A program made the translations under genes and the position numbers. From a virus: a stretch of 64,000 bases of DNA. Of the stretch, positions 20,452-56,337 are shown one piece after another (position 1 is the stretch's first letter; each line of letters starts with the position of its first letter). The notes beneath the pieces are model-generated. The model made no database searches and was not told where the DNA came from. It worked only from the letters and a program-made list of their open reading frames with translations. The stretch is from the IMG/VR virus record IMGVR_UViG_3300027833_000013, positions 96,001 through 160,000 of that record, one strand, 5' to 3'.

Positions 20452-20480
20452 TTGACAACCTTAACTTTTTAGTATATACT
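20452..20480 (+). promoter_or_regulatory. Sigma70-type promoter at the head of the tailoring island
   Basis: TTGACA (20452-57), 17 bp, TATACT (20475-80); RBS AAGGAG at 20494-99; ATG at 20505. Confidence 0.85.
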
Positions 20481-20504
20481 ATACAGTATATCTAAGGAGT
20501 AACT

Positions 20505-20840
20505 ATGGACGAACGACTAGAAAAAGCATTAGCTGTTAGTAAAGCATTAGAAACACATCAAAATCAAAAAAATATTCTTCATAAGCAGTATAAAGATAAT
20601 TTACTCTATTACTTTGATGGACATAAAGTTAGTGTAGACCTTTCTTTAATTAGTTACTGTACTAATAGAACAGGACCTGTAGTTATTATAGACGATAACA
20701 AGACTCCGACACTTATTGATAACGTTGAAGAATTTAATAAAAAAATAACAGCAATGTACGACACTGCAACACGTAAATACCTTGTTGAATTTAAAAAGAT
20801 TAAATCAAAAAGGTCAGTAGAGGAATTAATCGACCTATGA
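20505..20840 (+). CDS. Hypothetical protein (111 aa)
   Basis: Strong promoter and RBS; ATGA-coupled to the downstream glycosyltransferase. Confidence 0.75.
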   Translation: MDERLEKALAVSKALETHQNQKNILHKQYKDNLLYYFDGHKVSVDLSLISYCTNRTGPVVIIDDNKTPTLIDNVEEFNKKITAMYDTATRKYLVEFKKIKSKRSVEELIDL

Positions 20841-21685
20841 CTCAAGGCGTATTGTTATTTGCATATAATTCTAAACATATGGATTATACAAAACAAGCTA
20901 TATATTGTGCAAAACTTATCAAAGAATACCTTGGTAAGGAAGTTGCACTAGTAACTGATAACGAAGAATATATTCAACGTCAATATCCGTTTTATACAAA
21001 GTATATAGATCATGTTATTACAACTGGTCATGAGGATAATGTACAAGAGCGTGTGTACAATGACGGACTGTATCACAGTGATCGCCAACGTTGGTATAAT
21101 ACTAATAGAAGCTCATGTTTTGAATTGACTCCGTTTGACGAAACACTTGTAATAGATACAGATGTTTTAATTTTTAATGACGAATTAAATAGATGCTTTG
21201 ACTCGACAGAAGATTTTCTAATATCTAAAGATTATAACTTTGTTGATATGAAGCGCGACTATTCAGAGTTTAATAAAGTGTCTGATACAACATGTGATAT
21301 GTTTTGGGCAACTGCATTTTATTTTAAAAAAACTGCATTTACAAATGTATTTTTTGATCTTATCGAACACATTAAAGAAAATTGGCATTTCTATAGACTA
21401 GTATATGAAGTTGTAGAAGTTAAGTTTAGAAACGATTATGCATTTAGCATAGCAATACATATGCTTCGAGGCATGAAAGACGCAACTTGGCCATCCCGTG
21501 TTCCTGCAAGCATTTGGATTACTGTAGATAAAGACATACTACATTCAATAAACGATACTAAATTAACCGTGTTATTACACAAAGAATACGACTATCAAGC
21601 AAGTGCAATTTGTGATGCTAATGTACACGTAATGAATAAGTTTTCATTAGAACGTTGCATTGACAAGGTATTTGAAAATGAGTAA
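20837..21685 (+). CDS. GT-A fold glycosyltransferase-like protein
   Basis: N-terminal GVLLFA strand, VALVTD, and TPFDETLVIDTD (DxD motif). Confidence 0.75.
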   Translation: MTQGVLLFAYNSKHMDYTKQAIYCAKLIKEYLGKEVALVTDNEEYIQRQYPFYTKYIDHVITTGHEDNVQERVYNDGLYHSDRQRWYNTNRSSCFELTPFDETLVIDTDVLIFNDELNRCFDSTEDFLISKDYNFVDMKRDYSEFNKVSDTTCDMFWATAFYFKKTAFTNVFFDLIEHIKENWHFYRLVYEVVEVKFRNDYAFSIAIHMLRGMKDATWPSRVPASIWITVDKDILHSINDTKLTVLLHKEYDYQASAICDANVHVMNKFSLERCIDKVFENE

Positions 21686-22517
21686 CGGTGTATGTTTACT
21701 AGCACAAAATAACGATACTACTGATTATATTAGACAAGCCTACGCACTTGCATTAAGCATTATTGCAAAGTCTCCTAAACAAAAAGTAAGCCTTATTACT
21801 AATGACAGTGTGCGTGACAAATACAGAAAAGTATTTGATCAAATCATTCCTATTCCTTGGGACGATAGTGCAACTAAAAGTAACTGGAAAATTGAAAATA
21901 GATGGAAAGTTTATCATGCAACACCTTACAGAAATACTATAGTATTTGATGTTGACATGCTAGTATTAGAGGATTTAGACATATACTGGAATCAGTTACA
22001 AAAAAATAATGTTGATCACGATATACTTTTTACTACGCAAGTGGTCAATTATAGGAACGAGCCTGTAACAAGTAGGTATTATAGAAAAACATTTGATGCA
22101 AACAACTTGCCTAATTTATATTCAGGAATGTATTACTTTAAAAAAGCAGAAACTACAAAACAATTTTTTGGCTTGCTAAAAACTGTTATGTGGAATTGGG
22201 GCGACTTTTACAAGATCAGTCTAAGTAAAATACCTCAAGAATGGTGTAGCTTTGATGTGTGTACTGCAATAACTGCAAAGTTATTAGATAGGACATACAC
22301 TATCGGAGACAACAATAATATTCTTGAGTTTACCCATATGAAATCGAGATTACAGAATGTTGATATTGATGATAAATGGACTAAGTCTCTTTTTGTAGAT
22401 TTTAATAAAGATCTTAATTTAATAGTTGGCGGAATTAAGCAGTCAGGAATATTTCATTATGTTGAAGATGAATTCTTAACAGACGAAATAGTTAGTATAC
22501 TAGAGGAAGCAATATGA
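21678..22517 (+). CDS. GT-A fold glycosyltransferase-like protein, paralog of 20837
   Basis: GVCLLA, VSLITND, TPYRNTIVFDVD (DxD), late FTHMK histidine. Likely start MSNGV at 21678. Confidence 0.75.
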   Translation: MSNGVCLLAQNNDTTDYIRQAYALALSIIAKSPKQKVSLITNDSVRDKYRKVFDQIIPIPWDDSATKSNWKIENRWKVYHATPYRNTIVFDVDMLVLEDLDIYWNQLQKNNVDHDILFTTQVVNYRNEPVTSRYYRKTFDANNLPNLYSGMYYFKKAETTKQFFGLLKTVMWNWGDFYKISLSKIPQEWCSFDVCTAITAKLLDRTYTIGDNNNILEFTHMKSRLQNVDIDDKWTKSLFVDFNKDLNLIVGGIKQSGIFHYVEDEFLTDEIVSILEEAI

Positions 22518-23140
22518 GTTACTATGCGTATTACAATGAAAAATGCGAAGTTACACAGATATCTAATGAGCCAGATCTGTCTACGAACGACATGTATATT
22601 TTAATTGATGAAGAAATGTTTATTGCATTTGCTAATGAAAAAATTAATTATATCAATTATAAAGTTATAAGCGGAAAGTTAACACTTAAAGCAGAAATTG
22701 AATTAGAAAAATATACTGACTCAAGAATCCCAATTGAACTTACTGATACATTAATAGAAAACTGCATGGTAGTAACACAAGATAAAAAAAATAAACATTG
22801 GTTTGCACAGTGTTATCTTAGTAGTGATGTTATAGAAAACTTTCTACTTATGCCAAAAGAACAAATTGAAAAAAAGATATTTACATTTTATGTAACAGCA
22901 AAAGACAACAGATTTATTTTACTTGATACAATAAAAATACCTGCAAAGTTTGTCCTCACAAAGAATGAAGGATGGCACACTGAAGCAACTAGTGCAGATA
23001 CTGGAGATGTGGTTGAAGTATTTACTGCACCGGCGTATACTATACCTAATATAGACAAAGAAATAGTAACTCAGGATGTTAGATTACTCGTCAGAAGAGA
23101 CTTTTTAACCTATCATCATAAAGTAGGAGAACTTACATGA
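22514..23140 (+). CDS. Hypothetical protein (208 aa)
   Basis: ATGA overlaps at both ends; no recognisable motif. Confidence 0.7.
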   Translation: MSYYAYYNEKCEVTQISNEPDLSTNDMYILIDEEMFIAFANEKINYINYKVISGKLTLKAEIELEKYTDSRIPIELTDTLIENCMVVTQDKKNKHWFAQCYLSSDVIENFLLMPKEQIEKKIFTFYVTAKDNRFILLDTIKIPAKFVLTKNEGWHTEATSADTGDVVEVFTAPAYTIPNIDKEIVTQDVRLLVRRDFLTYHHKVGELT

Positions 23141-24057
23141 AAATTATAGATTATGATATTATATACTTGTCATACGACGAGCCAAACGCAGAAAAAAACT
23201 ATGCAGACCTATTAAGTAAAGTGCCTTGGGCAAAACGGGTGCATGGTGTAGAAGGCAGTGATGCCGCACACAAAGCATGTGCAAACCTAAGTGAAACAGA
23301 TCGTTTTATTACAGTAGATGGCGACAACATTATTAATGCAGAGTTTTTAGGACAAGAACTTGACTTTGATGATCATGCAGATTTAGAACACAGTGTAATT
23401 AGTTGGTGCGGCAGGAATATAATTAACGGATTAATGTACGGCAATGGTGGATTAAAATGTTGGCCAAAGCAGTATGTGTTAGATATGAAAACACATGAAA
23501 ACGCAGAAGCAGACAACCCGCATGCACAAGTTGACTTTTGCTGGGATCTAAAATACATACAGCAAAACAGTTGGTATAGCGATGTACATAATAATGAAAC
23601 TGCACTACAAGCATGGAGGGCAGGGTTCCGTGAAGGTGTTAAGATGTCATTAGATCAAGGAGTGCGACCAACTAAAGAAGCTTTCTTACAAGGCCATTGG
23701 AAAAACTTACATAGGTTGTGGGTGTGGTTAATGGCAGGCGCTGATGTAGAAAATGGACTATGGGCTATTTATGGTGCTCGAGAAGGATTATATATGACAA
23801 TGTGTACAGATTGGGATTATGTACAAGTTAGGGATTTTGAATATTTAAACGAGTACTGGAATAAAACAGTTAGTGTATATATAAATGACGACAACTTGTT
23901 AGAATCAATTCAACGGTTAGGCAACAGTCTTATTGATGAATTAGAAATACCCATTGCTAAGAATCCTTTAGATGCACAACAAAGTAAGTTCTTTAAAGAA
24001 GTTTACCAGAATCCGAGTAGGAATGCACGACAACAGTTTGTGATTGATCCTGAATGA
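23137..24057 (+). CDS. GT-A-like (GT2-related) glycosyltransferase
   Basis: DIIYLSYDEP...VHGVEGSDAAH...RFITVDGD (DxD), YGNGGLK, AWRAGFRE. Confidence 0.65.
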   Translation: MKIIDYDIIYLSYDEPNAEKNYADLLSKVPWAKRVHGVEGSDAAHKACANLSETDRFITVDGDNIINAEFLGQELDFDDHADLEHSVISWCGRNIINGLMYGNGGLKCWPKQYVLDMKTHENAEADNPHAQVDFCWDLKYIQQNSWYSDVHNNETALQAWRAGFREGVKMSLDQGVRPTKEAFLQGHWKNLHRLWVWLMAGADVENGLWAIYGAREGLYMTMCTDWDYVQVRDFEYLNEYWNKTVSVYINDDNLLESIQRLGNSLIDELEIPIAKNPLDAQQSKFFKEVYQNPSRNARQQFVIDPE

Positions 24058-25424
24058 GTAACGAACAACGTATAGAAGAATTAAAACTAAAAAAAGATCT
24101 AATAAATTCTGTTAGTTGTAGTTTCTGTACGGCTAAGTGGTTACAAACAACCCTTATGTTACAAAATGGATATAACCATAGTTGCCATCACCCGGCACCG
24201 CATAAAATTCCATTAGAAGAAATAGAAGCAGATCCCGCAGCCTTGCACAATAGTAAGTTTAAAAAAGAACAACGTGCTATGATGTTAAAAGGTGACCGCC
24301 CTTCGGAATGTGATTACTGTTGGAAGATTGAAGATTTAGACAAAGATTATTTTTCAGACAGACATTATAAAACAGCAGACAACTGGGCATGGGACAGATT
24401 TGAAGATATTGCTAAAAGCAATCCACAAGATAATGTATATCCTAGTTACTTAGAAGTTAGTTTTTCAAATGCTTGTAATTTTGCATGTGCTTACTGCTCG
24501 CCTGAAATTAGCAGTAAGTGGATGGAAGATATAAAACAAAACGGTGAGTATCCGGACGGTGCTCATAACTTAGATTATTTAAAGCAAGCTGGAAAATTTC
24601 CATATGCAAACAACGAAGACAATCCGTATGTAACAGCATTTTGGAAATGGTTTCCTGATGCACTTCCGCATTTAAAAGTTCTACGTATTACAGGCGGCGA
24701 ACCTACAATGAGTAAAGATACTTGGAAGTTATTAGATTACATAATTAATAATCCACAACCTCAATTAGAAATTGCAGTTAATACAAATTTAAATGTTCCA
24801 GCAAAGCTAATAGATAAATTAATATACTATAGCGGCGAGCTTGAAGGTAAACTTAAAAAGTTTGACATATACACAAGTGCTGAAGCAGTTGGTGACCAAA
24901 ATGATTATGTAAGAGATGGGATGAATTACAAAGTTTGGATGACTAATGTACATCGTATGTTGTATGAAACTAATAGTACTGTAGCAATAATGACAACTAT
25001 TAATATTTTAAGTTTGCCTAGCTTTGCTAAATTTATACAAGACGTTATGGAACTTAGAAAAGATTACAATTTAAATTTTGAACACAATAGAATTCCGTTA
25101 AGCATTAACTATCTTAGATGGCCTTTGCATTTACAAACTATACTATTAGATAAAGAACAACGTGTAAAGTACGCTAATGAAATTGAGAGTACATGCGAGT
25201 CTTGGCTCAAATATTACAGTAAAGAAAAATATGCTAGAATTTACTTAGAAGAATTTGATCAAATAAAACGGTTGTGTAACTATCTTAGAAACACAGAACC
25301 AGCTATTCAGTATCGTGGTAACTTTTGCAGATATATACATGCATACGATAAGCGTCGAAACAAAAACTTTAAAGATACTTTTCCAGAGTACTCAACATTA
25401 TTAGAGGATTGGCATGCCAGCTAA
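24054..25424 (+). CDS. Radical SAM enzyme with N-terminal auxiliary Cys/His domain
   Basis: CNFACAYC and ITGGEP; N-terminal FCTAKW..SCHH..ECDYC. Confidence 0.92.
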   Translation: MSNEQRIEELKLKKDLINSVSCSFCTAKWLQTTLMLQNGYNHSCHHPAPHKIPLEEIEADPAALHNSKFKKEQRAMMLKGDRPSECDYCWKIEDLDKDYFSDRHYKTADNWAWDRFEDIAKSNPQDNVYPSYLEVSFSNACNFACAYCSPEISSKWMEDIKQNGEYPDGAHNLDYLKQAGKFPYANNEDNPYVTAFWKWFPDALPHLKVLRITGGEPTMSKDTWKLLDYIINNPQPQLEIAVNTNLNVPAKLIDKLIYYSGELEGKLKKFDIYTSAEAVGDQNDYVRDGMNYKVWMTNVHRMLYETNSTVAIMTTINILSLPSFAKFIQDVMELRKDYNLNFEHNRIPLSINYLRWPLHLQTILLDKEQRVKYANEIESTCESWLKYYSKEKYARIYLEEFDQIKRLCNYLRNTEPAIQYRGNFCRYIHAYDKRRNKNFKDTFPEYSTLLEDWHAS

Positions 25425-26859
25425 AGAAGATGAAACATTGCTACAGTACAGGCAACGTATAATAGATCCAAAGAGTACTAGCTTCTGTGGTGCAAAATGG
25501 TTTAATGCAACTACTTGGTTAGGTAGTGGCACAACTGCTAGTTGTCACCACCCGCCGGCACATCAGATTCCATTAGAAGAAGTAGAAGAAAACTACACAG
25601 CAATTCACAACACTAAACATAAGAAAGAGATGCGTAGGCAAATGCAAACGGGCGAACGCCCTGCAGAGTGCGAGTATTGTTGGAAAATGGAAGATATGAA
25701 AAAAGATGCAGTAAGTGATCGCACCTTTAAAACTATTATCTATACTGACGAAGAACTACAGGCTGCATATGATGCAGACTGGAATGAAAACACAGGTCTT
25801 AAAACGTTTGAAATTGCGTTTGATAGAACTTGTAACTTAGCGTGTTCGTATTGCAATGCTAGTTTTAGTACTACATGGGCAAAAGATATTAATAAGAATG
25901 GTCCTTATGAAAACTTAGTCAGTGATGGCGCAGGTGCGTTTAAACACAATGGTGATTGGGCCGCTCCGTACGATAATGATGCAGACAATCCTTATATACA
26001 GGCATTTTGGAAATGGTGGGATAACGGCCTTGCAGATAGTTTAGATGAACTACGCATTACAGGTGGCGAACCACTAATGAGCGGCAACACTTGGAAACTA
26101 TTTGATTGGTATTCTAAACAGAAATCAGATATGCGATTTGCTATTAACTCGAACTTAATTGCAAAAGAAAGCATTATTAATAAGTTGATTGAAAAAGCCC
26201 AAGGAATTAAAAAGTTCCACATTTATACTAGCTGTGAAGCAGTTGGTGAACAGGCTGAATACATCCGGGACGGGTTAGTTTACGATCAATGGGTAAACAA
26301 CGTAACACGTATTTTAGATGAAACTGACGTAGAGCTACATTGCATGATGACTATTAATAGTTTATGCTTGTTTAGTATTACAGAATTTCTTGATCAAATC
26401 TATACGCTAAAAGAACGTACAGGAACAAAAACGCCGACAGTAAGTTTAAACTTATTACGTTTTCCAAGTTTCCAAAGTCCTTTAGCATTGCCAGTACATC
26501 TTAAAGATTATTGCTACAATAAACTAAATGATTGGTATAACGTAAACAAGCACAAAGCGTTATGGCACGAGCATGAAAAAGCAAGCATCGAACGTTTAAT
26601 AGATTATCTAGTTACTGTAGATGCTCCGCATAGACGCACGAGCAATCCTGTAACACTATGGCGCGACTTTAAAACATTTTATCAGCAATATGATGTACGT
26701 AGAAATAAAAACATAAACGTGTTTCCAAAAATCCTAACAGATTGGATAGAAAGTATTCCTGATACAGATGCAAGTATTACAGAACTTGCAGAAAAAGAAG
26801 GATGGATATTAAATCCTGATAATAAGAATATTGCCAAAGGACTAGCAACATATGACTAA
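25414..26859 (+). CDS. Radical SAM enzyme, paralog of 24054
   Basis: CNLACSYC and ITGGEP; N-terminal FCGAKW..SCHH..ECEYC. Confidence 0.92.
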   Translation: MPAKEDETLLQYRQRIIDPKSTSFCGAKWFNATTWLGSGTTASCHHPPAHQIPLEEVEENYTAIHNTKHKKEMRRQMQTGERPAECEYCWKMEDMKKDAVSDRTFKTIIYTDEELQAAYDADWNENTGLKTFEIAFDRTCNLACSYCNASFSTTWAKDINKNGPYENLVSDGAGAFKHNGDWAAPYDNDADNPYIQAFWKWWDNGLADSLDELRITGGEPLMSGNTWKLFDWYSKQKSDMRFAINSNLIAKESIINKLIEKAQGIKKFHIYTSCEAVGEQAEYIRDGLVYDQWVNNVTRILDETDVELHCMMTINSLCLFSITEFLDQIYTLKERTGTKTPTVSLNLLRFPSFQSPLALPVHLKDYCYNKLNDWYNVNKHKALWHEHEKASIERLIDYLVTVDAPHRRTSNPVTLWRDFKTFYQQYDVRRNKNINVFPKILTDWIESIPDTDASITELAEKEGWILNPDNKNIAKGLATYD

Positions 26860-28105
26860 AGATAATTTTTGTGTAGCACCGTGGATGCATTTACACGTTA
26901 TTAACGATGGCCGGGCATTTCCTTGTTGTCAAACACCTTTAGAAGATAAACATGCATATGGCAATGTAAGAGAAACTGCAATACATGATATCTTAAACAG
27001 TACTAAAGCTAAAGGCATGCGCAAAGATATGTTAACAGGTGTGCCATTACCTTCTAGTTGTGAGCGATGCACATCTAAAGAAAAGCACGGATTTGGTAGT
27101 ATGCGCACTGGCATGAATCAAAAGTGGTTACCTCAAGTACAAGACGAAGTAGACGCAACTCATGCAGACGGAACAATAGACAATCCTGTAATTAAAAATT
27201 GGGATTATAGATTTAGTAACTTTTGTAATCTTGCTTGTCCAACTTGCGGTCCATTGTTCAGTACACAATGGCATGCTGATTATAAAAAATTATTTCCTGA
27301 CTATCCAATGACCGAAAAGGCACTAGTTGATCTAAAAGATGCAGATTTATTTTGGAGTGATTTTTCAAAATATGCTAACCATGCAAAAGAAATTCATATT
27401 GCAGGCGGCGAACCATTTATGATGCCCGAAAATAATAAAGTGTTAACTGCATTAGAACAAGAAGAAAATTACGATATTGCAATACGATATAGTACAAACT
27501 GTACAGTATTAAAGCAAGGAAAAGAAAATATTCTAGACCGATTACAGAAGTTTAGTTATATACATCTTAGTTGTAGTATTGATGCCGCAGGCGATGCTTT
27601 CGAATACATTCGATATAAAGGTAAGTGGGACGTTGTTTTAAATAATTTAAAAGAAATTAGACAAAGTGGCCACAACTATTGGATTCATCCTACAGTAAGT
27701 ATATTAAATATTTTTAGAATTACAGAGTTGCACGAAGAACTTTGGAACGCAGATATTATACCAGCAAAACGAGTACATTATAATGCCGACGGAACTGGTG
27801 CAGAATTTCACATAGAAAACTACTGGGTTGACAGGATGCACTTTAATCCATTATTTGTTCCTGAATATTATAGTATGACAATAATGCCAGCACACCTTAA
27901 AGAGCAGGCCGCCGATAAAATTACAACTTATGGCAAACGACTAGAGAAGGAACATAGTATTCCGTTCCATGGCTGGCAAGCCTTAATTGATTTTATGTAT
28001 CAGGCAGATGACAGTCATTTGTATGATGAATTTTTAAGTAAAACACACAATTTAGATAAATTACGTGGCAATGATTTTTATAAAATTAACAAGGAATTTA
28101 AATAG
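26852..28105 (+). CDS. Radical SAM enzyme with N-terminal twitch/SPASM-like domain
   Basis: CNLACPTC and AGGEP; N-terminal FCVAPW..PCCQ..SCERC. Confidence 0.92.
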   Translation: MTKDNFCVAPWMHLHVINDGRAFPCCQTPLEDKHAYGNVRETAIHDILNSTKAKGMRKDMLTGVPLPSSCERCTSKEKHGFGSMRTGMNQKWLPQVQDEVDATHADGTIDNPVIKNWDYRFSNFCNLACPTCGPLFSTQWHADYKKLFPDYPMTEKALVDLKDADLFWSDFSKYANHAKEIHIAGGEPFMMPENNKVLTALEQEENYDIAIRYSTNCTVLKQGKENILDRLQKFSYIHLSCSIDAAGDAFEYIRYKGKWDVVLNNLKEIRQSGHNYWIHPTVSILNIFRITELHEELWNADIIPAKRVHYNADGTGAEFHIENYWVDRMHFNPLFVPEYYSMTIMPAHLKEQAADKITTYGKRLEKEHSIPFHGWQALIDFMYQADDSHLYDEFLSKTHNLDKLRGNDFYKINKEFK

Positions 28106-29106
28106 TGAGTAAAAAAAGTAAGCTAGAAAAGGTATCTCAATCGCAACTAGCAAAGACCATAGTAACGAACAAGACAATACAGAAAGATAATTACGACAGT
28201 CCTGGTAGCGATTGGGATAATGTTTCCCACTTAGGGGTTGATCATCTAGATACATCAGCAGTTTCACCTTTTCGAGTTAAATCATTTGATGATCTTAGAA
28301 ACTATGGCCCGTGGCAACCACTGCACCTATTAAGAAAACGTGCAGGCGAAACTCGTGAGAATGTATCATTCGATGTGCCCTGGGTACACGAAACTGAAAT
28401 TCCATATCTTAAAGAACAGCCTTGGAAATATAGAATAAATGAATACGGATTTAGAGACGAATGGAAATTTAAAACTAAACGTGCAAACATAGGCTACTTT
28501 GGATGCAGTATGACATATGGTGAAGGCGTCGATACCCCAGATCTATGGAGTACTCATATAACAAATGCGTATAAGTTAACAGGGTTAAACTTTGGTGTAG
28601 GCGGCGCCGGTCCTTTGCGTGTAGCAAGAACATTTGCCGCAGTACAGCAAACAATGAAATTAAAGTATGCTATAATAATGCTACCACAAATCTCAAGAGT
28701 AGAACTATGGCAATACAACAATTATCAGCAACCAAAACAGCATCCTAGATTACATACTATAAACTTAATTCCTAATTTTCCACCTAGTCCTACAGATTTT
28801 ACGGGAGGAGATGACGTGTATAATGATTACTTTAAAGTTATGACAGATGAACAATCAATTAGTCAGTGTGTACAAGCGTGTAATTGGATAACTCAAACAG
28901 CAAGAGCAAACAAGACTCGGGTACTATTCTGTTCTTGGGATCCGTTTAGTTTATGGGCTATGCACAATGCAGGAGTTCCTAATTTGCATAATAAAATGTT
29001 TAAAAGGCTAGACTTAGGTAGAGATCAAATGCACCCGGGCCCGGAGTCTAATTTACAATTTAGTAAAAGTATAAGAAGGTGGATAGATGCTAACCCTTGG
29101 CTTTAG
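28105..29106 (+). CDS. SGNH/GDSL-like hydrolase or acyltransferase
   Basis: FGCSMTYG (block I), NFGVGG (block II), C-terminal RDQMHPG (DxxH); GTG start. Confidence 0.6.
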   Translation: MSKKSKLEKVSQSQLAKTIVTNKTIQKDNYDSPGSDWDNVSHLGVDHLDTSAVSPFRVKSFDDLRNYGPWQPLHLLRKRAGETRENVSFDVPWVHETEIPYLKEQPWKYRINEYGFRDEWKFKTKRANIGYFGCSMTYGEGVDTPDLWSTHITNAYKLTGLNFGVGGAGPLRVARTFAAVQQTMKLKYAIIMLPQISRVELWQYNNYQQPKQHPRLHTINLIPNFPPSPTDFTGGDDVYNDYFKVMTDEQSISQCVQACNWITQTARANKTRVLFCSWDPFSLWAMHNAGVPNLHNKMFKRLDLGRDQMHPGPESNLQFSKSIRRWIDANPWL

Positions 29107-30034: not shown

Positions 30035-30707
30035 CATTATTTTTATAAGCTATAATGAACCAGAAGCTGATGCTAACTGGGAACGTCTTACTGAAACATA
30101 CTTCTGGGCTAAACGTGTACACGGTGTAACTGGAATTCATCAAGCCCACATACAAGGTGCTAAACTAGCTAACACAGAAATGGTTTGGTTTGTTGATGCA
30201 GATGCAATAGTAATGGATGACTTTGACTTTAGTTACGAACCTGATAAAGATAACCTAGACACAGTGCATGTATGGCGTAGTCAAAACCCGGTTAACGGAT
30301 TAGTGTACGGCAACGGCGGAATAAAACTATTTCCTCGTCAGCTTACTATTGACATGGATTTGTCACAACCTGATATGACAACTAGTATAACGCACAAATT
30401 TAAAGTAATGCACGAAATTGCAAACATTACAGCATTTAATACCAACCCTTTCAGTACATGGCGTAGTGCATTTAGAGAATGTGCAAAATTAAGCAGTAAA
30501 GTAATTGATCGGCAAAAAAATGAAGAAACAGATAGTAGACTGGATACGTGGTGTACCGTTGGGCGTGAAAACTTATTTGGTGACTATGCTATTCGTGGTT
30601 CCATTGCTGGGCGTAAGTATGGCGCTACTCATCAAGGCGATACTGCCGCTTTAAGATTAGTAAACAATTATGATTGGCTAAAGGAGCAATTTGATGCAGA
30701 CGTTTGA
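30027..30707 (+). CDS. GT-A-like glycosyltransferase, paralog of 23137
   Basis: YDIIFISYNEP..RVHGVTGIHQAH..WFVDAD (DxD), YGNGGIK, WRSAFRE. Confidence 0.7.
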   Translation: MYDIIFISYNEPEADANWERLTETYFWAKRVHGVTGIHQAHIQGAKLANTEMVWFVDADAIVMDDFDFSYEPDKDNLDTVHVWRSQNPVNGLVYGNGGIKLFPRQLTIDMDLSQPDMTTSITHKFKVMHEIANITAFNTNPFSTWRSAFRECAKLSSKVIDRQKNEETDSRLDTWCTVGRENLFGDYAIRGSIAGRKYGATHQGDTAALRLVNNYDWLKEQFDADV

Positions 30708-48381: not shown

Positions 48382-49360
48382 TCATTATTTCTTCTGCTAC
48401 GTGACATTGTTCTTGTAAGCAAGTTGTTGTAGTGTCCTTAAATAAAGGAATGTTGTCTACAAAAATATTACCAATAGTTCCTTCATTACTGCATACACCG
48501 TGTTTCATCCTGCCGTCGGCTTCGATAAGTAATTTACGTTTTACAACCTCACACTGCCATCCTTTAAACTTATTCATTCCGTTTGCAATAAACTGTGATA
48601 TAGGCATCTTTTCAACACCGTGTTTAGTTTCTAGTAATACGTCAGGCAAATAATCTTGTGAATTATCTTCAAGTTGATTTAAATAAGAAAGTTCTTCTTT
48701 AGTAAAGTATCCATCATTGCCGATAGATTGCTTATACCCTTTTAAATACCTACTTGACTCATATGGTTGATTAAATGTTTTTGTTTCTTTATTGTATAAA
48801 GGAAATACCGGTAACTTTACAGTTGGGATATTGTGCTTTAATAACTCGTGTTCTAGTTGTTCTACTTTATGAAATAAGTTTTTTACAAGCATTGCTCTAA
48901 TTTCAACATCGCCGCCTGCCGCTTTAATCATTACAGCAAGGTTTACAATAGTCTCTATATCAGCAGACTCGGGATGAAAACTTATTTTCATTTCTAAATT
49001 TTTAAATGAGAATGTATCTCTACATTTTTCATACATCTTTATAGGCATGCTTCCGTTAGTAAACATCATAATATGAAAATTGTTATTAGACAGATATTTT
49101 AACCATTTATCAATATTAGGTATCAAGAATGGCTCACCTCCTGTAATAACAATCATTGTTTCTTTATCTAATGGAATTGCATTACGTAATTTTTTAGAAG
49201 CGTTAATTAATGCATCAATTGACGGAATTTTCTTCTTATTAATTGCTATATGATTGCTAGGACTACAATAGCTACAATCGTAATTACACATGTCAACAGG
49301 ACGCCATTGTACCGTGTAATCAGTATTCCATTTTTCTAGATATAATTTAGAGAAGTTCAT
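48362..49360 (-). CDS. Radical SAM enzyme (the only reverse-strand gene in the island)
   Basis: CNYDCSYC, TGGEP, FKGWQC..VC..CLQEQC. Start is MNFSK (49360) or MCMNF (49366). Confidence 0.9.
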   Translation of the reverse strand: MNFSKLYLEKWNTDYTVQWRPVDMCNYDCSYCSPSNHIAINKKKIPSIDALINASKKLRNAIPLDKETMIVITGGEPFLIPNIDKWLKYLSNNNFHIMMFTNGSMPIKMYEKCRDTFSFKNLEMKISFHPESADIETIVNLAVMIKAAGGDVEIRAMLVKNLFHKVEQLEHELLKHNIPTVKLPVFPLYNKETKTFNQPYESSRYLKGYKQSIGNDGYFTKEELSYLNQLEDNSQDYLPDVLLETKHGVEKMPISQFIANGMNKFKGWQCEVVKRKLLIEADGRMKHGVCSNEGTIGNIFVDNIPLFKDTTTTCLQEQCHVAEEIMITKFYV

Positions 49361-49365
49361 ACACA

Positions 49366-49410
49366 TAGTTATCCACCTTTATTGTTACACTTTGCTATAT
49401 GTGATAATTA
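49366..49410. promoter_or_regulatory. Back-to-back late-like promoter variants GATAACTA (-) and GATAATTA (+)
   Basis: Minus-strand GATAACTA at 49366-73 and plus-strand GATAATTA at 49403-10, each followed by exactly 5 nt then ATG. Confidence 0.5.
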
Positions 49411-49415
49411 TTAGT

Positions 49416-50039
49416 ATGCATAACTTATATTCTTCACTTACACAGTACGGTACTCAGATAGCTCTTAGATCTAAAGAACAATTCCCTTCGGTGCAATATG
49501 TCAAATGGACTGAAGAAAATTTTAAATACGTAAAATATAATCCAAGAAATAGTTTTAATAGATGGGGACTTAGTCTTACTAGCTACGATGGCGGCTTGTC
49601 GGGTATTCCAGATCTTGACAGTTTACATCAGTATAACCTAGAAAATAACACAACTATCGAAGAATCAGAGTTTAATATTCCAACCCCTGCGTACTTAGAT
49701 AACTATCACATACAAGAATTTTTAAAGCCTTATAGCAAGTATATGTACAGAACGCATATACTTAAACTAGATCCAGGTGGATTCTTTCCACAACATAGAG
49801 ATTTTAGAGGTAGCAATTTTAATAGTGTACGGCTTATATCTCCGCTAAAGAACCACTGTACGTTTATTATGGATAACAAAGTGCTTAACTGGGAAAAAGG
49901 ATGGCTATATTTTCTAGACACTGCAAAAGTACATTCACTATTTAACACGCAAACAAAGCCAAGTTATTGGTTAGTAGCTAATATAGATTTAAATGAGGAA
50001 TCGTTTAATATTATAACAGATAATTTTGATAGAAGATAA
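49416..50039 (+). CDS. 2OG-Fe(II) dioxygenase, aspartyl/prolyl beta-hydroxylase-like
   Basis: LDPGGFFPQHRD...YFLDTAKVHSLFN. Likely start MHNLY at 49416. Confidence 0.75.
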   Translation: MHNLYSSLTQYGTQIALRSKEQFPSVQYVKWTEENFKYVKYNPRNSFNRWGLSLTSYDGGLSGIPDLDSLHQYNLENNTTIEESEFNIPTPAYLDNYHIQEFLKPYSKYMYRTHILKLDPGGFFPQHRDFRGSNFNSVRLISPLKNHCTFIMDNKVLNWEKGWLYFLDTAKVHSLFNTQTKPSYWLVANIDLNEESFNIITDNFDRR

Positions 50040-50590
50040 TGAAAATAGAAGTAATAAAAGACAAACACCTTAGTATGCTCCAACAGTTTTGCAACCAATG
50101 TGCAGAATTGCAATATGAAAATAATAAATCTTTAACAGCTATGAAACTATTGTGGTGCAAAGATTGGGGTGAATATTTTTGTGCAATTAAAGATAACAAA
50201 ATAATAGCAGTAGCAGGCTGTCACCCATTGCCAGAAGTAGGCCCTAAGGCCTGGCGTATAATGTTTAGAGGATGCGAACTACCCCAAACTGATACATTTA
50301 AGGGACTAGGCAAAGGCGATTGGAATAGTATTACACAACGTGAAATGATTCCTAAGTTTATCGAATGGTGCCCAAGTGACCAACTATACATTACTACTAA
50401 CACATATCATGAACATTCAAATGGCAAAGCATCGCGCAATCATCGACTGATGGGGTTACTTGCAAAGCAAAAAATACTTGACAAGCACAGTGAAATGATG
50501 TTATACTATACAGAACAGACTGTCTGGAAATTAAATATTCAAGAATATACTAGGCGTAGAAGTTTGTTGAAAGGAAACTATGTGGTTTAA
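50039..50590 (+). CDS. GNAT-like acyltransferase
   Basis: IKDNKIIAVAG...RIMFR...KGLGK...LYITTN...AS pattern of the GNAT fold. Confidence 0.5.
   Translation: MKIEVIKDKHLSMLQQFCNQCAELQYENNKSLTAMKLLWCKDWGEYFCAIKDNKIIAVAGCHPLPEVGPKAWRIMFRGCELPQTDTFKGLGKGDWNSITQREMIPKFIEWCPSDQLYITTNTYHEHSNGKASRNHRLMGLLAKQKILDKHSEMMLYYTEQTVWKLNIQEYTRRRSLLKGNYVV
50478..50507 (+). promoter_or_regulatory. Internal sigma70-like promoter
   Basis: TTGACA (50478-83), 18 bp, extended -10 TGtTATACT (50499-507), ~70 nt upstream of ATG 50580. Confidence 0.5.
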
Positions 50591-50837
50591 TCTTAAACAT
50601 TTACAAGAAGCAAAAACAAAAGCTGGCAAACCTAACGCAGGATACTGGTGGCACTTTAAACTTGCTATAATGGAATTTTTCTTTCTATTATTTGTTTGTA
50701 TTGGAAGCCTAATACATGCAATTTTTCCTTGGGTTCTTGATTTTAAATTATTAGAATGGCGAATTGCTAGGCTAAAACAACTTAAAAAGAAATTACCAGA
50801 TGACCCACAACTAAAGAAGGTACACTTTGATGACTAA
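50580..50837 (+). CDS. Small membrane protein, DUF6356-like
   Basis: HL...Y..H..A followed by a hydrophobic helix ending IHAIFPW. Confidence 0.55.
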   Translation: MWFNLKHLQEAKTKAGKPNAGYWWHFKLAIMEFFFLLFVCIGSLIHAIFPWVLDFKLLEWRIARLKQLKKKLPDDPQLKKVHFDD

Positions 50838-51666
50838 TGTATTAGACTTAATAGCATACAGAGATGGTGAATACAAACCATTGCGAGAAATTGGCCCTAG
50901 TATATTAGATTTTGGATTTATTCATTGTGATGCTACATATGATGTTATGCCTGTTTATAACGGCAAAGCATTTTGTTATGATAGACATTCAACAAGATTT
51001 GAAAACAGTGCAAAACGTTATGGACTAGAGTTGCCAGATGTAGATAGATTATCCATTGTTAAAGAACTTAAAAAACTAAATGATGTTACAGACGCATTTG
51101 TTTGGTTTCTTGTATGGAGAGGCGCACCGCCAAGCGGCAATCCTAGAGATATAAAAAACTGTCCAATACATTTTGCTATGTATATCAAGCCAAGTTATCC
51201 TATTGCAGATAATCCAATTGTAACTTTACATTTAGATACAAATACAAACAGAGTCAGCGATGATTACTATGGACAAGAATATAAAAACATGGCTTGGCTT
51301 GACTTAACAATGAGCCAACGCAATAAACCAAAAGATGCAGACACAACTATTCTTGTAGATGTAGACGGTAATGTTACCGAAGGACCTGGATTTAATGTTG
51401 GCATAGTATCTAACGGAGTTATATACACAGCAGATAAGAATGTTCTCAAAGGCATTACAATGACAGTGGTAGAAGATATCGCAAGGGATAATGGCATCAT
51501 GTTTTGTAGGTTACCAATTTCACAAGAACAGTTTAACAACGCAAACGAAGTGTTTATAACTAGTTCGAGTGGTGGTGTAACAGCAACGCAAAAGTCTGGA
51601 CCTGTTACTGAACTTCTTATTAACAGGTACAAAGACAAAATGGAAGAGTATGGAACCGTATTATAA
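50830..51666 (+). CDS. PLP fold-type IV aminotransferase with (R)-amine-transaminase-like motifs
   Basis: LDFGFIHCDATYDV, AFVWFLVWRG, YKNMAWLDL, EGPGFN, LKGIT, EVFITSSSGG. Confidence 0.85.
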   Translation: MTNVLDLIAYRDGEYKPLREIGPSILDFGFIHCDATYDVMPVYNGKAFCYDRHSTRFENSAKRYGLELPDVDRLSIVKELKKLNDVTDAFVWFLVWRGAPPSGNPRDIKNCPIHFAMYIKPSYPIADNPIVTLHLDTNTNRVSDDYYGQEYKNMAWLDLTMSQRNKPKDADTTILVDVDGNVTEGPGFNVGIVSNGVIYTADKNVLKGITMTVVEDIARDNGIMFCRLPISQEQFNNANEVFITSSSGGVTATQKSGPVTELLINRYKDKMEEYGTVL

Positions 51667-52150
51667 ACTTGTACCATACGCAATTAGTGATCAGACAAAG
51701 CAAGAGTTATTAGATATAGCTCTTGCTCCTGATACATTTGTGGATATAAGCTATAAAATAAGTTTCTTTAAATTACCTAGTACACTACAAAGATTTAATA
51801 CTACTGGATTAAATTGCGTATGTCAACTGCTACGTGTTTCTGAATCTGGTAGCACTATACATAAAGATCGTAATAGGTACAACGAATACGATAATCAGTA
51901 TATGCCTCGACATACTGTAATTAGTTTTGCATTAACTAACAATTGTGGAGAGACACATTTCTATGACGACAATAAGAACTTTGTAACCAGTATAGATTAT
52001 GCAGGCCACGGCGCTATATTAAATACTGGAGAACATTACCATAACGTTCACTTTACAGAAGATAACAATACTAGAATAGTATTTCAATTATGTTTTGAAG
52101 AAAGATTTAGTGAAGTATGTAACTTATATAATAAAGGAATTGTAATATGA
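51650..52150 (+). CDS. 2OG-Fe(II) dioxygenase-like protein
   Basis: IHKD...ETHFY...HYHNV...RIVFQ. Confidence 0.65.
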   Translation: MEPYYKLVPYAISDQTKQELLDIALAPDTFVDISYKISFFKLPSTLQRFNTTGLNCVCQLLRVSESGSTIHKDRNRYNEYDNQYMPRHTVISFALTNNCGETHFYDDNKNFVTSIDYAGHGAILNTGEHYHNVHFTEDNNTRIVFQLCFEERFSEVCNLYNKGIVI

Positions 52151-53514
52151 AAAAGATTATAATAGTCGGCGGTGGATCCGCCGCTTGGGCATCAGCATAC
52201 CAAATTTTACGTAGCGAGTCGGTTGACGAAATACAAGTTATTCACAGTGGTACAGTTCCTATTATTGGAACAGGGGAAGGAGCAACTGGTTCTTTAGATG
52301 ATATAATCCTTAAAGGAGACCATAAAGAGTTTTTAGAAAAAACTAACTCTACAGTTAAGCTAGGGATACTTTTTGAAAACTGGCAAGGCAACGGCACTAA
52401 GTTTAACAAATATGTAGATGCCTGGCATTATGATGCTATAAGAGGTGGCGCCGGAAAAGACATAGACGTTATGTATAAAATACTTGACGAAGGCATAGAC
52501 ACCGACGATGTTAGTATTAATGCTTTTTTAATGAAGCATAAACTACAAGACTTTGAAGAAGTTAAACGACATACATTTCACTTTGATGGTAAGAATGTAG
52601 GACAATTTTTTAAAGATCGTTGTCTTGCTAGTAACAAAGTAACTAGTATAATAGATACCATTACTGATATAGAAGTTAATAATGGAAAAGTGATTAGTTT
52701 ACATGGTGAGAAAGATTCATATATAGCAGATTTTTATATTGACTCAACTGGATTTAGAAGATTATTTGCATCCTTTATTAAGCATGAATTTGAACCTTAC
52801 GAAGAGTGGCTAGATATAAATGCCGCTGTTCCGTTTCTTCTTCCAGCAAAGAAGCAAGCATATACAGTTTCAAGAGCAATGAAGAATGGTTGGATGTGGG
52901 AAGTTCCTAAAACAAATAACTTAGGTTCTGGCTATAACTACAGCACTAAGCATATCTCATCAGATGAAGTAATTGCTGAAGCACAGGAATATCTTGGACA
53001 CAATATTAAACCGATTAAAGTAGTTGAATACACTAGTGGGTGTTATAAAAAAACTGCTGGTCCTAATTATGCATTTATTGGACTAAGTGCAGGTTTTATA
53101 GAACCACTTGAAGCAACAGCATTACATTGTAGCATTTATAGTGCAGAAGAATTAATAAAATACTTTAAAGGTGAAAAAACATTAGATCAATACAATGATT
53201 ATGTATACGAAATGGTAACTGACTTTAGAGACTTCACAATATTGCATTACAGGATGGCAACAAGAAATGATACAAAATTTTGGCAAGATCAAAAGAAGAA
53301 ACCTATCCCAGAAAAGTTACAAGAGCAAATTAAACTATTTGAAAATGGAAGTTTAGAGTGTCTGTACAATACAACACACATATACTTTATGTTTCAAACA
53401 TCAGTTGGATTCAATTTTATTAAAAAGCCAAAAGTATTTGACTATGATAAAACTATTGAAATACCAACATTAGATGCTATAAACAGAATTAAACAAAAAC
53501 ACAATGTGGAATAA
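52147..53514 (+). CDS. Flavin-dependent (tryptophan-halogenase family) halogenase
   Basis: IVGGGSAAW FAD motif, IGTGEG, TVKLGILFENW (catalytic Lys), FYIDSTGF, GWMWEVP (WxWxIP-like), FIEPLEAT. Confidence 0.88.
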   Translation: MKKIIIVGGGSAAWASAYQILRSESVDEIQVIHSGTVPIIGTGEGATGSLDDIILKGDHKEFLEKTNSTVKLGILFENWQGNGTKFNKYVDAWHYDAIRGGAGKDIDVMYKILDEGIDTDDVSINAFLMKHKLQDFEEVKRHTFHFDGKNVGQFFKDRCLASNKVTSIIDTITDIEVNNGKVISLHGEKDSYIADFYIDSTGFRRLFASFIKHEFEPYEEWLDINAAVPFLLPAKKQAYTVSRAMKNGWMWEVPKTNNLGSGYNYSTKHISSDEVIAEAQEYLGHNIKPIKVVEYTSGCYKKTAGPNYAFIGLSAGFIEPLEATALHCSIYSAEELIKYFKGEKTLDQYNDYVYEMVTDFRDFTILHYRMATRNDTKFWQDQKKKPIPEKLQEQIKLFENGSLECLYNTTHIYFMFQTSVGFNFIKKPKVFDYDKTIEIPTLDAINRIKQKHNVE

Positions 53515-53519
53515 TCTGT

Positions 53520-54551
53520 ATGAAAATTAAACACAATATTAAATTAGATTTTAGTGATGTTCTTATTGAACCGAAAGCAAGCAGTGTTCCGCTTACACGT
53601 AAAAGTGTTGACATTGAAATAGATTGGTTAGGTACTACTGCAACTCCTGTAATAGTATCAAACATGCTTAGTACTGGTACTTACAAAATTGCAAATATGC
53701 TTACTCCGTTACGTGTCTTTACGTTCTTACATAAAGAATATACTGCTGAACAGCATATTACAGAGTTAGAAAAAATGCAAGACAGAAAGTTCATTGCTAT
53801 TACAAGTGGTGTACAAAGTTGGGATAAAGAAAAAACAATTGAAGTAGTTTCTAAATTTCCTGACATAGGAATAATTAATGTCGACATTGCAAATGTGTAT
53901 GCTAATATAGACGGCATGATTAAAACTATTAAACTATACAGAGAAAAATTTCCACATATAAAAATTAGTGCAGGCAATATAGCAACGGGTGAACCTATTA
54001 AAGTATTAGCCGATGCCGGCGCAAATTTTATTAAGGTAGGAGTAGGTAGTGGAGCCGCTTGTAGGACACGTTCAGAAGTTGGCACTGGCATACCTCAACT
54101 AAGTGCTATTATGGATTGCTATGAAGAAGCTGTTAAATATAGCGTCGAAATTATTTCAGACGGAGGATGTGTTACTGCCGGAGATGTTTGCAAAGCAATT
54201 GGCGCCGGAGCCAAAATGGTAATGGTAGCTGGCATGGTATCTAAGTCAGAAGAGTGTGATAATATTGTAGAAATAGATGGTAAAAAATATGTAAACTTTT
54301 ATGGGTTAGGCAGTACAACTATGTATAACCGAACAAAACCAACAGAACAAGAGTATAGACCTAACGAAGGCAGAGACTTGCTAATACCGTGTAAAGGGTC
54401 TATTACAAGCGTTATACAGCAGATACAAGGCGGTTTACGTAGTGTATGCACTTATGTAGGTGCAGAACATATAGATCAATTACACAAACGTACAGTGTTT
54501 GTACGTGTAAATAATCAAATAAACAATAGTTTAGCAAGATATGAACAATGA
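53520..54551 (+). CDS. guaC: GMP reductase (IMPDH/GMPR family, no CBS domains)
   Basis: IKLDFSDVLIEPK, VDIAN, AGNIAT, KVGVGSGAACRTR (catalytic Cys), IISDGG, FYG, EGR, GGLRSVCTYVGA. Confidence 0.8.
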   Translation: MKIKHNIKLDFSDVLIEPKASSVPLTRKSVDIEIDWLGTTATPVIVSNMLSTGTYKIANMLTPLRVFTFLHKEYTAEQHITELEKMQDRKFIAITSGVQSWDKEKTIEVVSKFPDIGIINVDIANVYANIDGMIKTIKLYREKFPHIKISAGNIATGEPIKVLADAGANFIKVGVGSGAACRTRSEVGTGIPQLSAIMDCYEEAVKYSVEIISDGGCVTAGDVCKAIGAGAKMVMVAGMVSKSEECDNIVEIDGKKYVNFYGLGSTTMYNRTKPTEQEYRPNEGRDLLIPCKGSITSVIQQIQGGLRSVCTYVGAEHIDQLHKRTVFVRVNNQINNSLARYEQ

Positions 54552-55246
54552 TAGATTATGCACATATACTTAAAAATGGTGTTGAAATAAGTAGTAGTGG
54601 TACTACAGGACCTGCTAAAACAGTCTTTAGAACGCCCGATAACTTACAGGCATGTAATGATGTTGCTATTGATGCACAACAGCTTACACGAAGCTCTAAG
54701 GTGCTTACAGTAACACGTATGACCCACGCAGGCGGCTTATTGACTCAAACATTACCTGCACATAGTATTGGCGCAGAATATAAAATACAACAATTTAATG
54801 TATATACTTTCTTAAAAGACTTTAAAGACTATACACATACATTCTTGGCACCTGCGCAAATGATGGCGTTAATGCATACAAAAGGATTTAAAGATTGTGA
54901 TCTTACTGGTAAGCGTATACTAGGCGGAAGCGATCCTGTTAGTTGGGAAATGATAGAAGCTTTTGTAAGTAAAGGGGCTATTATACAACCTAATTGGGGA
55001 ATGAGCGAAATAGGACCAATTACTATTAATATAGAATTTGATAGTATGGATAAAGTACAGTATGTTAAACAACGATCACCAGATGATTATACTATTATGG
55101 GAGATACCTATTATTGCGATTGGAAAATAGTAAAGCAAGAACTTTACGTTAAAGGACCAACTAGTATATATGATGAATGGTTTGCTACAGGCGACAATGT
55201 AGCATTAGACATGGGTAGAAGGATGTATTATATTGGCCGTAAATAG
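54548..55246 (+). CDS. Miniature adenylate-forming (AMP-binding, ANL family) enzyme
   Basis: SSGTTGPAK (A3), HAGG, WGMSE (A5), WFATGD (A7); ends at YIGRK (A8). Confidence 0.8.
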   Translation: MIDYAHILKNGVEISSSGTTGPAKTVFRTPDNLQACNDVAIDAQQLTRSSKVLTVTRMTHAGGLLTQTLPAHSIGAEYKIQQFNVYTFLKDFKDYTHTFLAPAQMMALMHTKGFKDCDLTGKRILGGSDPVSWEMIEAFVSKGAIIQPNWGMSEIGPITINIEFDSMDKVQYVKQRSPDDYTIMGDTYYCDWKIVKQELYVKGPTSIYDEWFATGDNVALDMGRRMYYIGRK

Positions 55247-55769
55247 AATTGTAGCATTTGGTTGTTCTAATACTGTTGGCGAAGCATGTAGCACTAATTG
55301 GCCAAAAGAATTAGGACTATTATTAGACTGTGAAGTTGTAAATTGTGCTGAAATAGGATGCAGTGGACGTTATATTATACACGCAATGCGACATTTTAAA
55401 TTTGAAAAAGATGATGTTTGTATTGTAGCATGGCCTGAAATAACTCGATATTGTTGGTTAAAAGGCGAAAATAACTTTAAACATATCGGAGTATGGAAAG
55501 ATTCTGATAGTACATTATATAAAAAGTATTTTTCAGATTATCATGCTGAACAAGATTTTTACTTGTACGAAGATTATGCTAGGTTATATGCAAAACAAAA
55601 TAATATTACCTATTTAGATTATTTAAGTTGTTATACCTTTGTAAATACTAAAAAGCATAAAATGGAATTACATGACTATGGAACAGATGATAAACATCCG
55701 GGTAAACTTAGTCATATAATTTTTGCACAACAAATTAGAAAGGATATAAAAGATGGAGCCGTATTTTAA
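55233..55769 (+). CDS. SGNH/GDSL-like hydrolase or acyltransferase
   Basis: VAFGCSNTVG, NCAEIGCS, IVAWP, DDKHPG..SH; TTG start. Confidence 0.6.
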   Translation: MAVNRIVAFGCSNTVGEACSTNWPKELGLLLDCEVVNCAEIGCSGRYIIHAMRHFKFEKDDVCIVAWPEITRYCWLKGENNFKHIGVWKDSDSTLYKKYFSDYHAEQDFYLYEDYARLYAKQNNITYLDYLSCYTFVNTKKHKMELHDYGTDDKHPGKLSHIIFAQQIRKDIKDGAVF

Positions 55770-56337
55770 GTATGTAGAAGGTATAAATTTTACACCTGAA
55801 ACACGTAAAAAACTTGCAGATAATATTTTATCTAATGCTGAAGATTATATCAGAAGTGCTAATTATAGACATAATAAGTACGGAAAATATGATTGGAATT
55901 GGTTCTGTCCACGTAACTTAATTCCTACAAAACTTATGGACGAAGTTGGTAAACGTTTTAATATACCAGTTTCATATGAAATACTAGGACAAACACCTTA
56001 TACAGATGGTAAGATACATACTGATCGAAAAGTAGAAGGACTTCCGCCTAGAGTTACACTAATAAACTTTCCAATATATCCGTTTGATATGAGCGTATAT
56101 GGACCAACTAATTTCTTTAAATTAATTGAAGGAAGTTACTCAGACTATGACAATGCTATATTTGAATTACAGTGTAGTGTTGATTACAGTCATAATCTTC
56201 CTGTAATTTTTAATCTACAAGAATATCACAATGCAGTAAACGATACAGATGATTACAGATTTAATTGTCAGTTTACAACTGACCTAGAAGGTCCTGAGAT
56301 ATTTGAACTTTATAATTCTGGTAAGTTGTTTACTTAG
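55753..56337 (+). CDS. 2OG-Fe(II) dioxygenase-like protein, paralog of 51650
   Basis: MEPY start, IHTD...PTNFF...YHNAVN..RFNCQ. Confidence 0.65.
   Translation: MEPYFKYVEGINFTPETRKKLADNILSNAEDYIRSANYRHNKYGKYDWNWFCPRNLIPTKLMDEVGKRFNIPVSYEILGQTPYTDGKIHTDRKVEGLPPRVTLINFPIYPFDMSVYGPTNFFKLIEGSYSDYDNAIFELQCSVDYSHNLPVIFNLQEYHNAVNDTDDYRFNCQFTTDLEGPEIFELYNSGKLFT

Follow-up and report, generated by a model that had tools for sequence, protein, structure and literature searches.

What do the enzymes of a phage island with 12 radical S-adenosylmethionine (SAM) genes and four glycosyltransferase (GT) genes build, and on which molecule? Marine phage genomes are rich in radical SAM and GT genes of no known target, and we address the question in the window, a stretch of 64,000 nucleotides that covers positions 96001-160000 of the 169,459-bp linear viral record IMGVR_UViG_3300027833_000013 (about 47% complete), the sequence of which occurs in marine metagenomes of several studies. 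The island comprises 43 genes at 20505-56337 (positions are those of the window, on the plus strand, unless stated otherwise). A gene of the baseplate region at 13550 is 43-57% identical to genes of the Phosso, Atu_ph07, Rak2-like and PA5oct-like jumbo myophages, and the record belongs to an uncultured ocean jumbo phage of this Rak2/Atu_ph07/PA5oct-like lineage. We propose that the island encodes a soluble glycan-building line acting on a phage-encoded virion acceptor, our best explanation, the chances of which to be right or wrong we consider evenly balanced. The locus itself gives the question a structure, as the island has three layers: an invariant core, a conserved tailoring set shared with bacteria, and rare passengers.

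An invariant core behind a virion gene

Six genes make up the core: o111 (20505-20840), GTa (20837-21685), GTb (21660-22517, probable start 21678), o208 (22514-23140), GTc (23137-24057) and GTd (30027-30707). They are preceded by S298 (19552-20448), the last structural gene and a candidate acceptor, and by three tail/baseplate fibre-family genes (14172-19513; 675, 604 and 489 aa) that have PHROG tail and virion matches and ATAAATA motifs upstream and are candidate acceptors as well. Scans of viral contigs anchored on GTc and on GTa gave at least 582 viral loci, reduced to 99 non-redundant ones; genomic linkage was assessed from the enzyme side only, with these anchors and not with S298. The order GTa-GTb-x-GTc is kept in 82 of 82 sufficiently long loci, and of 94 non-redundant loci, 93 have a fibre-region gene no more than four genes upstream of the core; a member of the S298 family stands immediately before the core in almost every locus. 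Two relatives, L147 and L169, have an island reduced to the six core genes followed by thyX; it spans less than 5 kb and carries zero radical SAM genes. An earlier note, made from the letters of this DNA, had called for a comparison of synteny across related phages, and the conserved GT core with a variable enzyme array that it envisaged does exist; the linkage to tail genes is nearly invariant and extends to a cultured soil phage.

This phage, RsoM2USA of Ralstonia, is the sole one with the GTs among 50,697 phage records scanned. It carries an eight-gene version (o111, GTa, GTb, a 184-aa gene, GTc, R1, GTd and a methyltransferase) at 31-46% identity, with the radical SAM protein R1 45% identical to its counterpart. 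The RsoM2USA core, ORF354-347, directly follows a homologue of S298 (E 1e-34) together with sheath and tube genes, among which lies a nucleoside diphosphate (NDP)-sugar dehydratase gene, and TAAATA late-type motifs precede both the core and the dehydratase. In PA5oct the S298 homologue (E 5e-43) is a virion protein by electrospray ionization tandem mass spectrometry (ESI-MS/MS), and the counterparts of the three fibre-family genes are annotated as virion proteins by the same method; the RsoM2USA paper reports only band identification. S298 is a member of a virion-protein family of unknown fold and not a proven fibre. Past the GT core, RsoM2USA (L081:3618-28420) has more than 30 paralogous genes of 190-220 aa, most starting with MKLxEI, that have no match in this genome.

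That four of the enzymes are of the GT-A type, as the earlier note had it, was supported by profile and fold searches; single proteins gave zero Pfam matches, and the likeness lies at the profile and fold level. GTa and GTb are paralogues, GT8-like and specific to phages: the model of GTa (DTD motif; predicted local distance difference test, pLDDT, 93) matches glycogenin and UGGT in Foldseek (E 6e-6), and GTb (DxD motif) matches a glycogenin profile (E 2e-7). GTc, GT2-like with a DGD motif and common to Bdellovibrionota, is modelled (pLDDT 89.5) as a truncated GT-A domain with a helical C-terminal half. As the fold matches of its residues 1-153 are diverse GT-A enzymes and nucleotidyltransferases (Z 8-10), glycocin S-glycosyltransferases included, donor and acceptor are not identified by fold. 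GTd is by sequence comparison a GT2-like paralogue of GTc, found in Bdellovibrionota and other bacteria. The four share the fold and the DxD motif with GT8 enzymes (glycogenin, the catalytic domain of UGGT) and GT2-like enzymes (the PBCV-1 capsid GT, glycocin S-glycosyltransferases), from which they differ in having 10-16% identity to them, no Pfam family match and, for GTc, a truncated core. PDB sequence searches with profiles of GTa, GTc/d, o208, o322 and S298 gave nothing useful. Several GTd homologues (L019:17953-20508, L152:19142-20815, L141:9019-10233) carry one to six degenerate repeats of ~100 aa before the intact domain, which resemble the N-terminal half of the GT domain.

The small gene o111 is an invariant member of the core; an Atlas lead (0.89) to a DUF4376 fibre chaperone was unsupported by family search or profile comparison. 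The sequence of o208 is hypervariable at a fixed position, and a complex prediction of its product with GTa scored 0.08, which speaks neither for nor against an interaction. A 446-aa variant of o208 has a weak PF02839 match, and such long variants (~446 aa; L017:8649-9989) contain CBM5/12-like repeats resembling motifs at the start of the long fibres of this phage.

Tailoring genes shared with Bdellovibrionota, and passengers

Genes of the island overlap or are spaced by 1 nt or less at 38 of 42 junctions, the largest gap being 25 nt, in agreement with the roughly 45 tightly packed genes first described, and the 12 radical SAM genes were likewise recovered, by the CxxxCxxC motif and Pfam PF04055. 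Behind GTc lie R1, R2 and R3 (24054-28105), of the N-terminal twitch type, followed by the SGNH-like o333 and the unknown o315 (28105-30034; by motifs), which are variable and patchy in relatives. GTd is followed by the near-core pair o322, class I SAM methyltransferase-like by alignment motifs, and the small o78 (30691-31882), with counterparts in RsoM2USA and Bdellovibrionota, and then by the QueC-like Q1, R4, an SGNH-like gene and R5, R6 and R7 (31872-37984). A variable array (37975-47243) comprises SGNH-like, pyridoxal phosphate (PLP) and 2-oxoglutarate (2OG)-Fe(II)-like genes, two methyltransferases, R8, R9, R10, two nitroreductases, Q2 and a degenerate third QueC-like gene recognised by motif. 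It is followed by R11 (47266-48381), the most conserved tailoring gene, and R12 (48362-49366), the only gene of the island on the minus strand. Stretches of GTc, R1, R2 and GTd are matched by metatranscriptome contigs (90-99% identity), which are uninformative on transcription or timing. Near the island, an IscU-like gene recognised from its sequence (62064-62483) could provide Fe-S clusters for radical SAM enzymes.

The enzyme list of the earlier note survived with different degrees of support. Pfam supports the two nitroreductases, the halogenase, the aminotransferase IV, the AMP-binding enzyme and the GMP reductase. Two of the three methyltransferases, two of the three QueC-like proteins, the PLP enzyme and one hydroxylase have weak Pfam or NCBIfam matches; the third methyltransferase, the third QueC-like protein, the four SGNH-like and three 2OG-Fe(II)-like proteins and the GNAT protein are assigned by motif only. 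Among the radical SAM proteins that were scored against the NCBIfam family NF033640 (N_Twi_rSAM, twitch domain-containing radical SAM), R1, R3 and R5 reach 324, 349 and 422 bits at a cut-off of 170, whereas R4, R8 and R11 fall below it and are of other types; the family is one without an assigned reaction.

The second layer is shared with bacteria. Some Bdellovibrionota chromosomes cluster GTc/GTd, the methyltransferase, R4, R5 and R11 amid housekeeping genes, in a non-prophage setting, and identity between phage and Bdellovibrionota proteins is 59-61% for R5, 42-47% for R4 and 62-69% for R11; among the best 80 of at least 591 viral loci, R11 is 79-95% identical. In a sample of 201 Bdellovibrionota genomes R11 occurs in 9, GTc/d in 11 and both in 8, an overlap of p ~1e-7 with the three seed genomes left out and without correction for kinship, and GTb was found in 0 of the 201. 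The bacterial clusters contain GT2s, a PMT_2-like GT-C, a QueC-like gene and multi-pass membrane proteins; in four of the five that carry the GTc/GTd/radical-SAM set there are proteins of 5-8 predicted helices. The shared clusters point to a glycan product. A GTc/GTd tree made by a quick method parts phage from Bdellovibrionota copies and tells neither direction nor donor. A contig binned to Bdellovibrionales (L172) carries a phage-type locus (S298, o111, GTa, GTb, GTc, R5, R11, GTd), the GTc of which branches between phage and bacterial copies, either through misbinning or as a phage of Bdellovibrionales. At another locus (L330) a homologue of R11 (84%) and one of o78 stand in a region of small genes that has no GT core, which shows that R11 is not confined to the island. 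In Photorhabdus (L224/L235) a GTd homologue lies amid GT4 and GT2 genes, together with radical SAM and prenyl-related genes and a type I secretion exporter, in what resembles an undescribed glyco-metabolite or glycopeptide cluster.

The right arm (49392-56337) contains three 2OG-Fe(II)-like genes, a GNAT-like gene, a DUF6356 membrane peptide, the aminotransferase IV, the halogenase of the flavin halogenase family, the GMP reductase, the AMP-binding enzyme and an SGNH-like gene, all rare in relatives. Most central and right-arm genes are absent from five complete islands of relatives, and in the R11-anchored comparison of the 80 best loci the halogenase occurs in one and the GMP reductase in two; these variable genes are probably passengers or optional steps. 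As to the combinatorial pathway that had been suggested, the far right arm looks more like passengers than like steps in a single pathway. The statement that no DNA-metabolism gene lies inside the block needs a small correction, as the GMP reductase is a gene of nucleotide metabolism; a scaffold synthase and an exporter are absent.

Fibre genes flank the island and none of its 43 genes, which are enzymes or small unknowns, contains a tail fibre module. Its right end overlaps the stop of a convergent Mtd_N fibre gene (56334-57938, minus strand; PF18454 E 3e-11; ATAAATA upstream), at which the complete islands of four relatives (~18, 31, 43 and 49 kb) also end. The picture of a block bracketed by fibre genes was corrected on two points: in the smallest relatives this right-hand gene is absent and thyX takes its place, and S298 on the left is not a proven fibre.

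The acceptor: virion, envelope or DNA

Gene content, folds, conservation pattern and genomic linkage are established, and from them we infer every chemical step. The o111-GTa-GTb-o208 group would prime a sugar on a tail-end virion protein (S298 or a fibre-family protein) in the cytoplasm, the GT2-like pair GTc/GTd would extend it, and the methyltransferase, radical SAM, SGNH, PP-loop, oxygenase and other enzymes would edit the sugars or the nucleotide donors. Gain and loss of the tailoring kit would then give each lineage decorations of its own, with possible effects on adsorption, stability or recognition. As the same core occurs in phages of unrelated hosts and habitats, a phage-encoded acceptor fits better than a host-specific polysaccharide. 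The fixed position behind S298, the PA5oct homologue and neighbours of which are virion proteins, would fit this explanation, and so would the apparent lack of membrane machinery combined with a glycogenin-like pair, confined to phages, in the place of the bacterial GT-C: a hydropathy scan of six phage islands found at most one or two helices per protein and no flippase, polymerase, GT-C or multi-pass enzyme. There is a precedent in mycobacteriophages, which carry glycans on capsid and tail tube (Freeman et al. 2023, as cited in PMC12619734).

Several observations weigh against a virion glycan. The island begins at 20452, four bases past the stop of S298, with the -35 box of a sigma70-type promoter for the host polymerase (TTGACA-17-TATACT, 20452-20480), which lies within two mismatches of consensus in 42 of 47 distinct upstream regions of relatives. 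The structural genes, unlike the island, use the late-type ATAAATA, which occurs 0 times on its coding strand against 15.8 expected. A virion target would still allow early expression if the enzymes and their Fe-S clusters have to be in place before the structural proteins appear, and late read-through into the island may occur. The core is missing from PA5oct, Atu_ph07, Phosso and CBB, cultured phages with related tails, of which PA5oct has S298; as these phages assemble without the core, the wider clade can do without any decoration. Enzymes of family GT8 that lack membrane helices also build the lipopolysaccharide (LPS) core, and fold matches do not tell the acceptor. Bacterial chromosomes, which have no virion, carry half of the core genes and those radical SAM genes that are conserved best; the GTc/GTd/radical-SAM set would work there, which means that tailoring by this set does not depend on a virion. 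The far right arm, for its part, resembles passengers and may not belong to the pathway. Two pointers in the earlier note gave way: the richness of virion proteins in serine and threonine (S/T) is equally high in relatives without the core (28% in the CBB long fibre, 19-24% in the PA5oct homologues) and was rejected as evidence of glycosylation, and co-variation with S298 (rho ~0.55-0.65) is no more than adjacency predicts. A value of rho 0.79 between GTd and the 675-aa fibre was discarded as an artefact of N-terminal extensions, the domain alone giving 0.27. The virion-modification reading of that note is favoured by the tail linkage and by the case against DNA set out below, and weakened by the early-type promoter and the bacterial homologues of half of the core. 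In Atu_ph07 (L082:30998-38647) and Phosso (L348:14668-22817) four radical SAM genes, unrelated to those of the island, surround an unknown gene of 296-306 aa at the same syntenic spot, behind a baseplate gene and a fibre-family gene and with no GT, possibly a second virion-tailoring module.

The main rival is remodelling of the host envelope, in which an early operon would edit the LPS core, O-chain or another surface glycan against superinfection or grazing. It gains from the conserved sigma70 promoter, the GT8-like enzymes, bacterial homologues that lie among GT2, GT4 and GT-C genes in surface-glycan-like clusters, and a second glyco-module outside the window, an ADP-heptose-type operon under a perfect sigma70 promoter (genome 21283-26192), with a GT9-like gene elsewhere in the genome. 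The same proposal has been made for similar islands (PMC7029224, PMC7824862), where it is a hypothesis. Yet the phage islands are devoid of the membrane machinery listed above, the same core recurs in phages of very different hosts, its position is fixed behind a virion gene, and the motifs in RsoM2USA are of the late type, and we regard this rival as unlikely, while taking it seriously. The GT9-like gene belongs to a trio with SGNH-like and carbamoyltransferase genes within the late fibre region (genome 35051-38734), and RsoM2USA likewise has a GT9-like gene; near genome position 17-21 kb stand genes that we take to be neck-like.

DNA hypermodification, with the GTs glycosylating a modified base that the array decorates, would suit early expression, and QueE-like and TGT-like genes do lie 5-13 kb past the island (genome 161576-169292), with QueC-like genes and the GMP reductase within it. 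The TGT-like protein, 36% identical to a PA5oct/Paride protein and without a family match, is a candidate divergent DpdA by its DSGGFQ motif, the nearby QueE and the deazaguanine system that PA5oct is described as having (PMC7824862). RsoM2USA offers another handle, since it is predicted to make hydroxymethyl-dCMP: its dCMP hydroxymethylase has the T4 enzyme as best PDB match (E 1e-22). This hydroxymethylase, however, has its own T4-type beta-glucosyltransferase beside it at 2-8 kb, whereas the core lies at 216-222 kb, ~210 kb away, and a TGT-like gene was not found in RsoM2USA. Marine relatives carry QueE-like and TGT-like genes, and a hydroxymethylase, beta-glucosyltransferase or C5 methylase was not found in the marine core-bearing records, whose completeness of 47-77% bounds any absence there; a search of five records for a TET/JBP dioxygenase gave no match, with the positive control equally silent. 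PA5oct and Phosso have a TGT-like gene and no core. As the core occurs without the TGT-like gene (RsoM2USA) and the TGT-like gene without the core (PA5oct, Phosso), the DNA systems are uncoupled from the core in both directions and no single base handle accompanies it; DNA appears an unlikely target of the core, and the explanation as a whole is the least probable of those considered. In T4-type and TET/C5-methylase DNA glycosylation and the 7-deazaguanine (DpdA) systems there are early phage GTs, and such systems exist in these genomes, but their genes are found in other places and are not inherited together with the core. Within RsoM2USA ORF1-10 (L244:29-8443), the unannotated dCMP hydroxymethylase and beta-glucosyltransferase and a CofD-family gene predict glucosyl-hydroxymethylcytosine in DNA, possibly further modified. 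Over the whole genome studied here CGCG, CATG and GGCC are under-represented (0.40, 0.62 and 0.67 of expectation), and GATC is not.

Two further explanations are improbable to a like degree, only slightly less so than DNA. A diffusible glycosylated metabolite or glycopeptide (toxin, signal or siderophore-like) made in infection would account for the halogenase, AMP-binding enzyme, aminotransferase and many radical SAM proteins, which resemble natural-product tailoring, for the glycocin S-glycosyltransferases among the matches of GTc and for the GT cluster with a type I exporter around the Photorhabdus GTd homologue, and something similar has been suggested for a cluster in a cyanophage (PMC7824862); the island has, however, no scaffold synthase, exporter or evident precursor, its natural-product-like genes are the rarest in relatives, and minimal islands are the GT core alone. 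A recombination sink, that is, a small functional GT operon with unrelated riders on a strong promoter and no single 43-gene pathway, agrees with an island size of ~5 to 49 kb across relatives, with inverted blocks and even one displaced fibre gene, and with the rarity of the GMP reductase and halogenase. Against it, the N-twitch radical SAM, SGNH, QueC-like, PLP and 2OG families recur in all large islands and bacterial clusters, and R11 is found together with GTc/d in Bdellovibrionota much more often than chance would give; it is probably true for the right arm only, where it is compatible with a virion glycan.

If the acceptor is a virion protein, the jumbo phages of Gram-negative hosts would join those with virion glycosylation, and a role would fall to the N-terminal-twitch radical SAM family; if it is the envelope, the old hypothesis that such islands convert the host surface would have its first proof. 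In both cases there is a large pool of candidate sugar-tailoring enzymes, and a cultured test pair exists in RsoM2USA, with its eight-gene version, and PA5oct, which naturally lacks the core and shares the virion protein family. A bolder proposal, that a widespread aquatic jumbo myophage lineage coats its virions with a GT8-primed protein-linked glycan diversified by arrays of up to ~15 radical SAM enzymes of an uncharacterised family, in a pathway shared with the envelopes of the predatory Bdellovibrionota, so that virions would be hypermodified by radical chemistry, is more tentative than the virion acceptor itself.

Relation to known systems

Variable islands of GT and radical SAM genes near tail genes (PMC7029224, PMC7824862) and virion glycosylation in mycobacteriophages (as cited in PMC12619734) are already known; no paper describing this island was found in the literature searched, which mostly excluded subscription papers. 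The closest description is that of the host recognition cluster of pelagimyophages and cyanomyophages, the function of which is hypothesised to concern the host O-chain (Zaragoza-Solas et al. 2020, PMC7029224). Both are large hypervariable islands of the structural region with GT8 enzymes and gain and loss of radical SAM cassettes. Unlike that cluster, which is bounded by VrlC and the neck gene gp14, the island lies between S298 and the Mtd_N fibre gene, past which non-structural genes follow, belongs to a different lineage, contains no tail fibre genes and is marked by a core of six invariant genes and a sigma70 promoter of its own.

Moraphage, likened here by description only, is an aquatic jumbo lineage with four GT orthogroups in its core genome (PMC12619734); it differs in being Lak-related with predicted Bacteroidota hosts, and a radical SAM array is not mentioned for it. 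Virion glycosylation of mycobacteriophages, as far as it is cited in PMC12619734, has phage GTs proposed to act on virion proteins, and here too the GTs are linked to virion genes. According to the same source the glycans were shown on actinophage capsid and tail tube, whereas here we deal with genes alone, in myophages of Gram-negative hosts, and the GTs are unrelated to those cited there and are accompanied in this phage by a large radical SAM tailoring kit.

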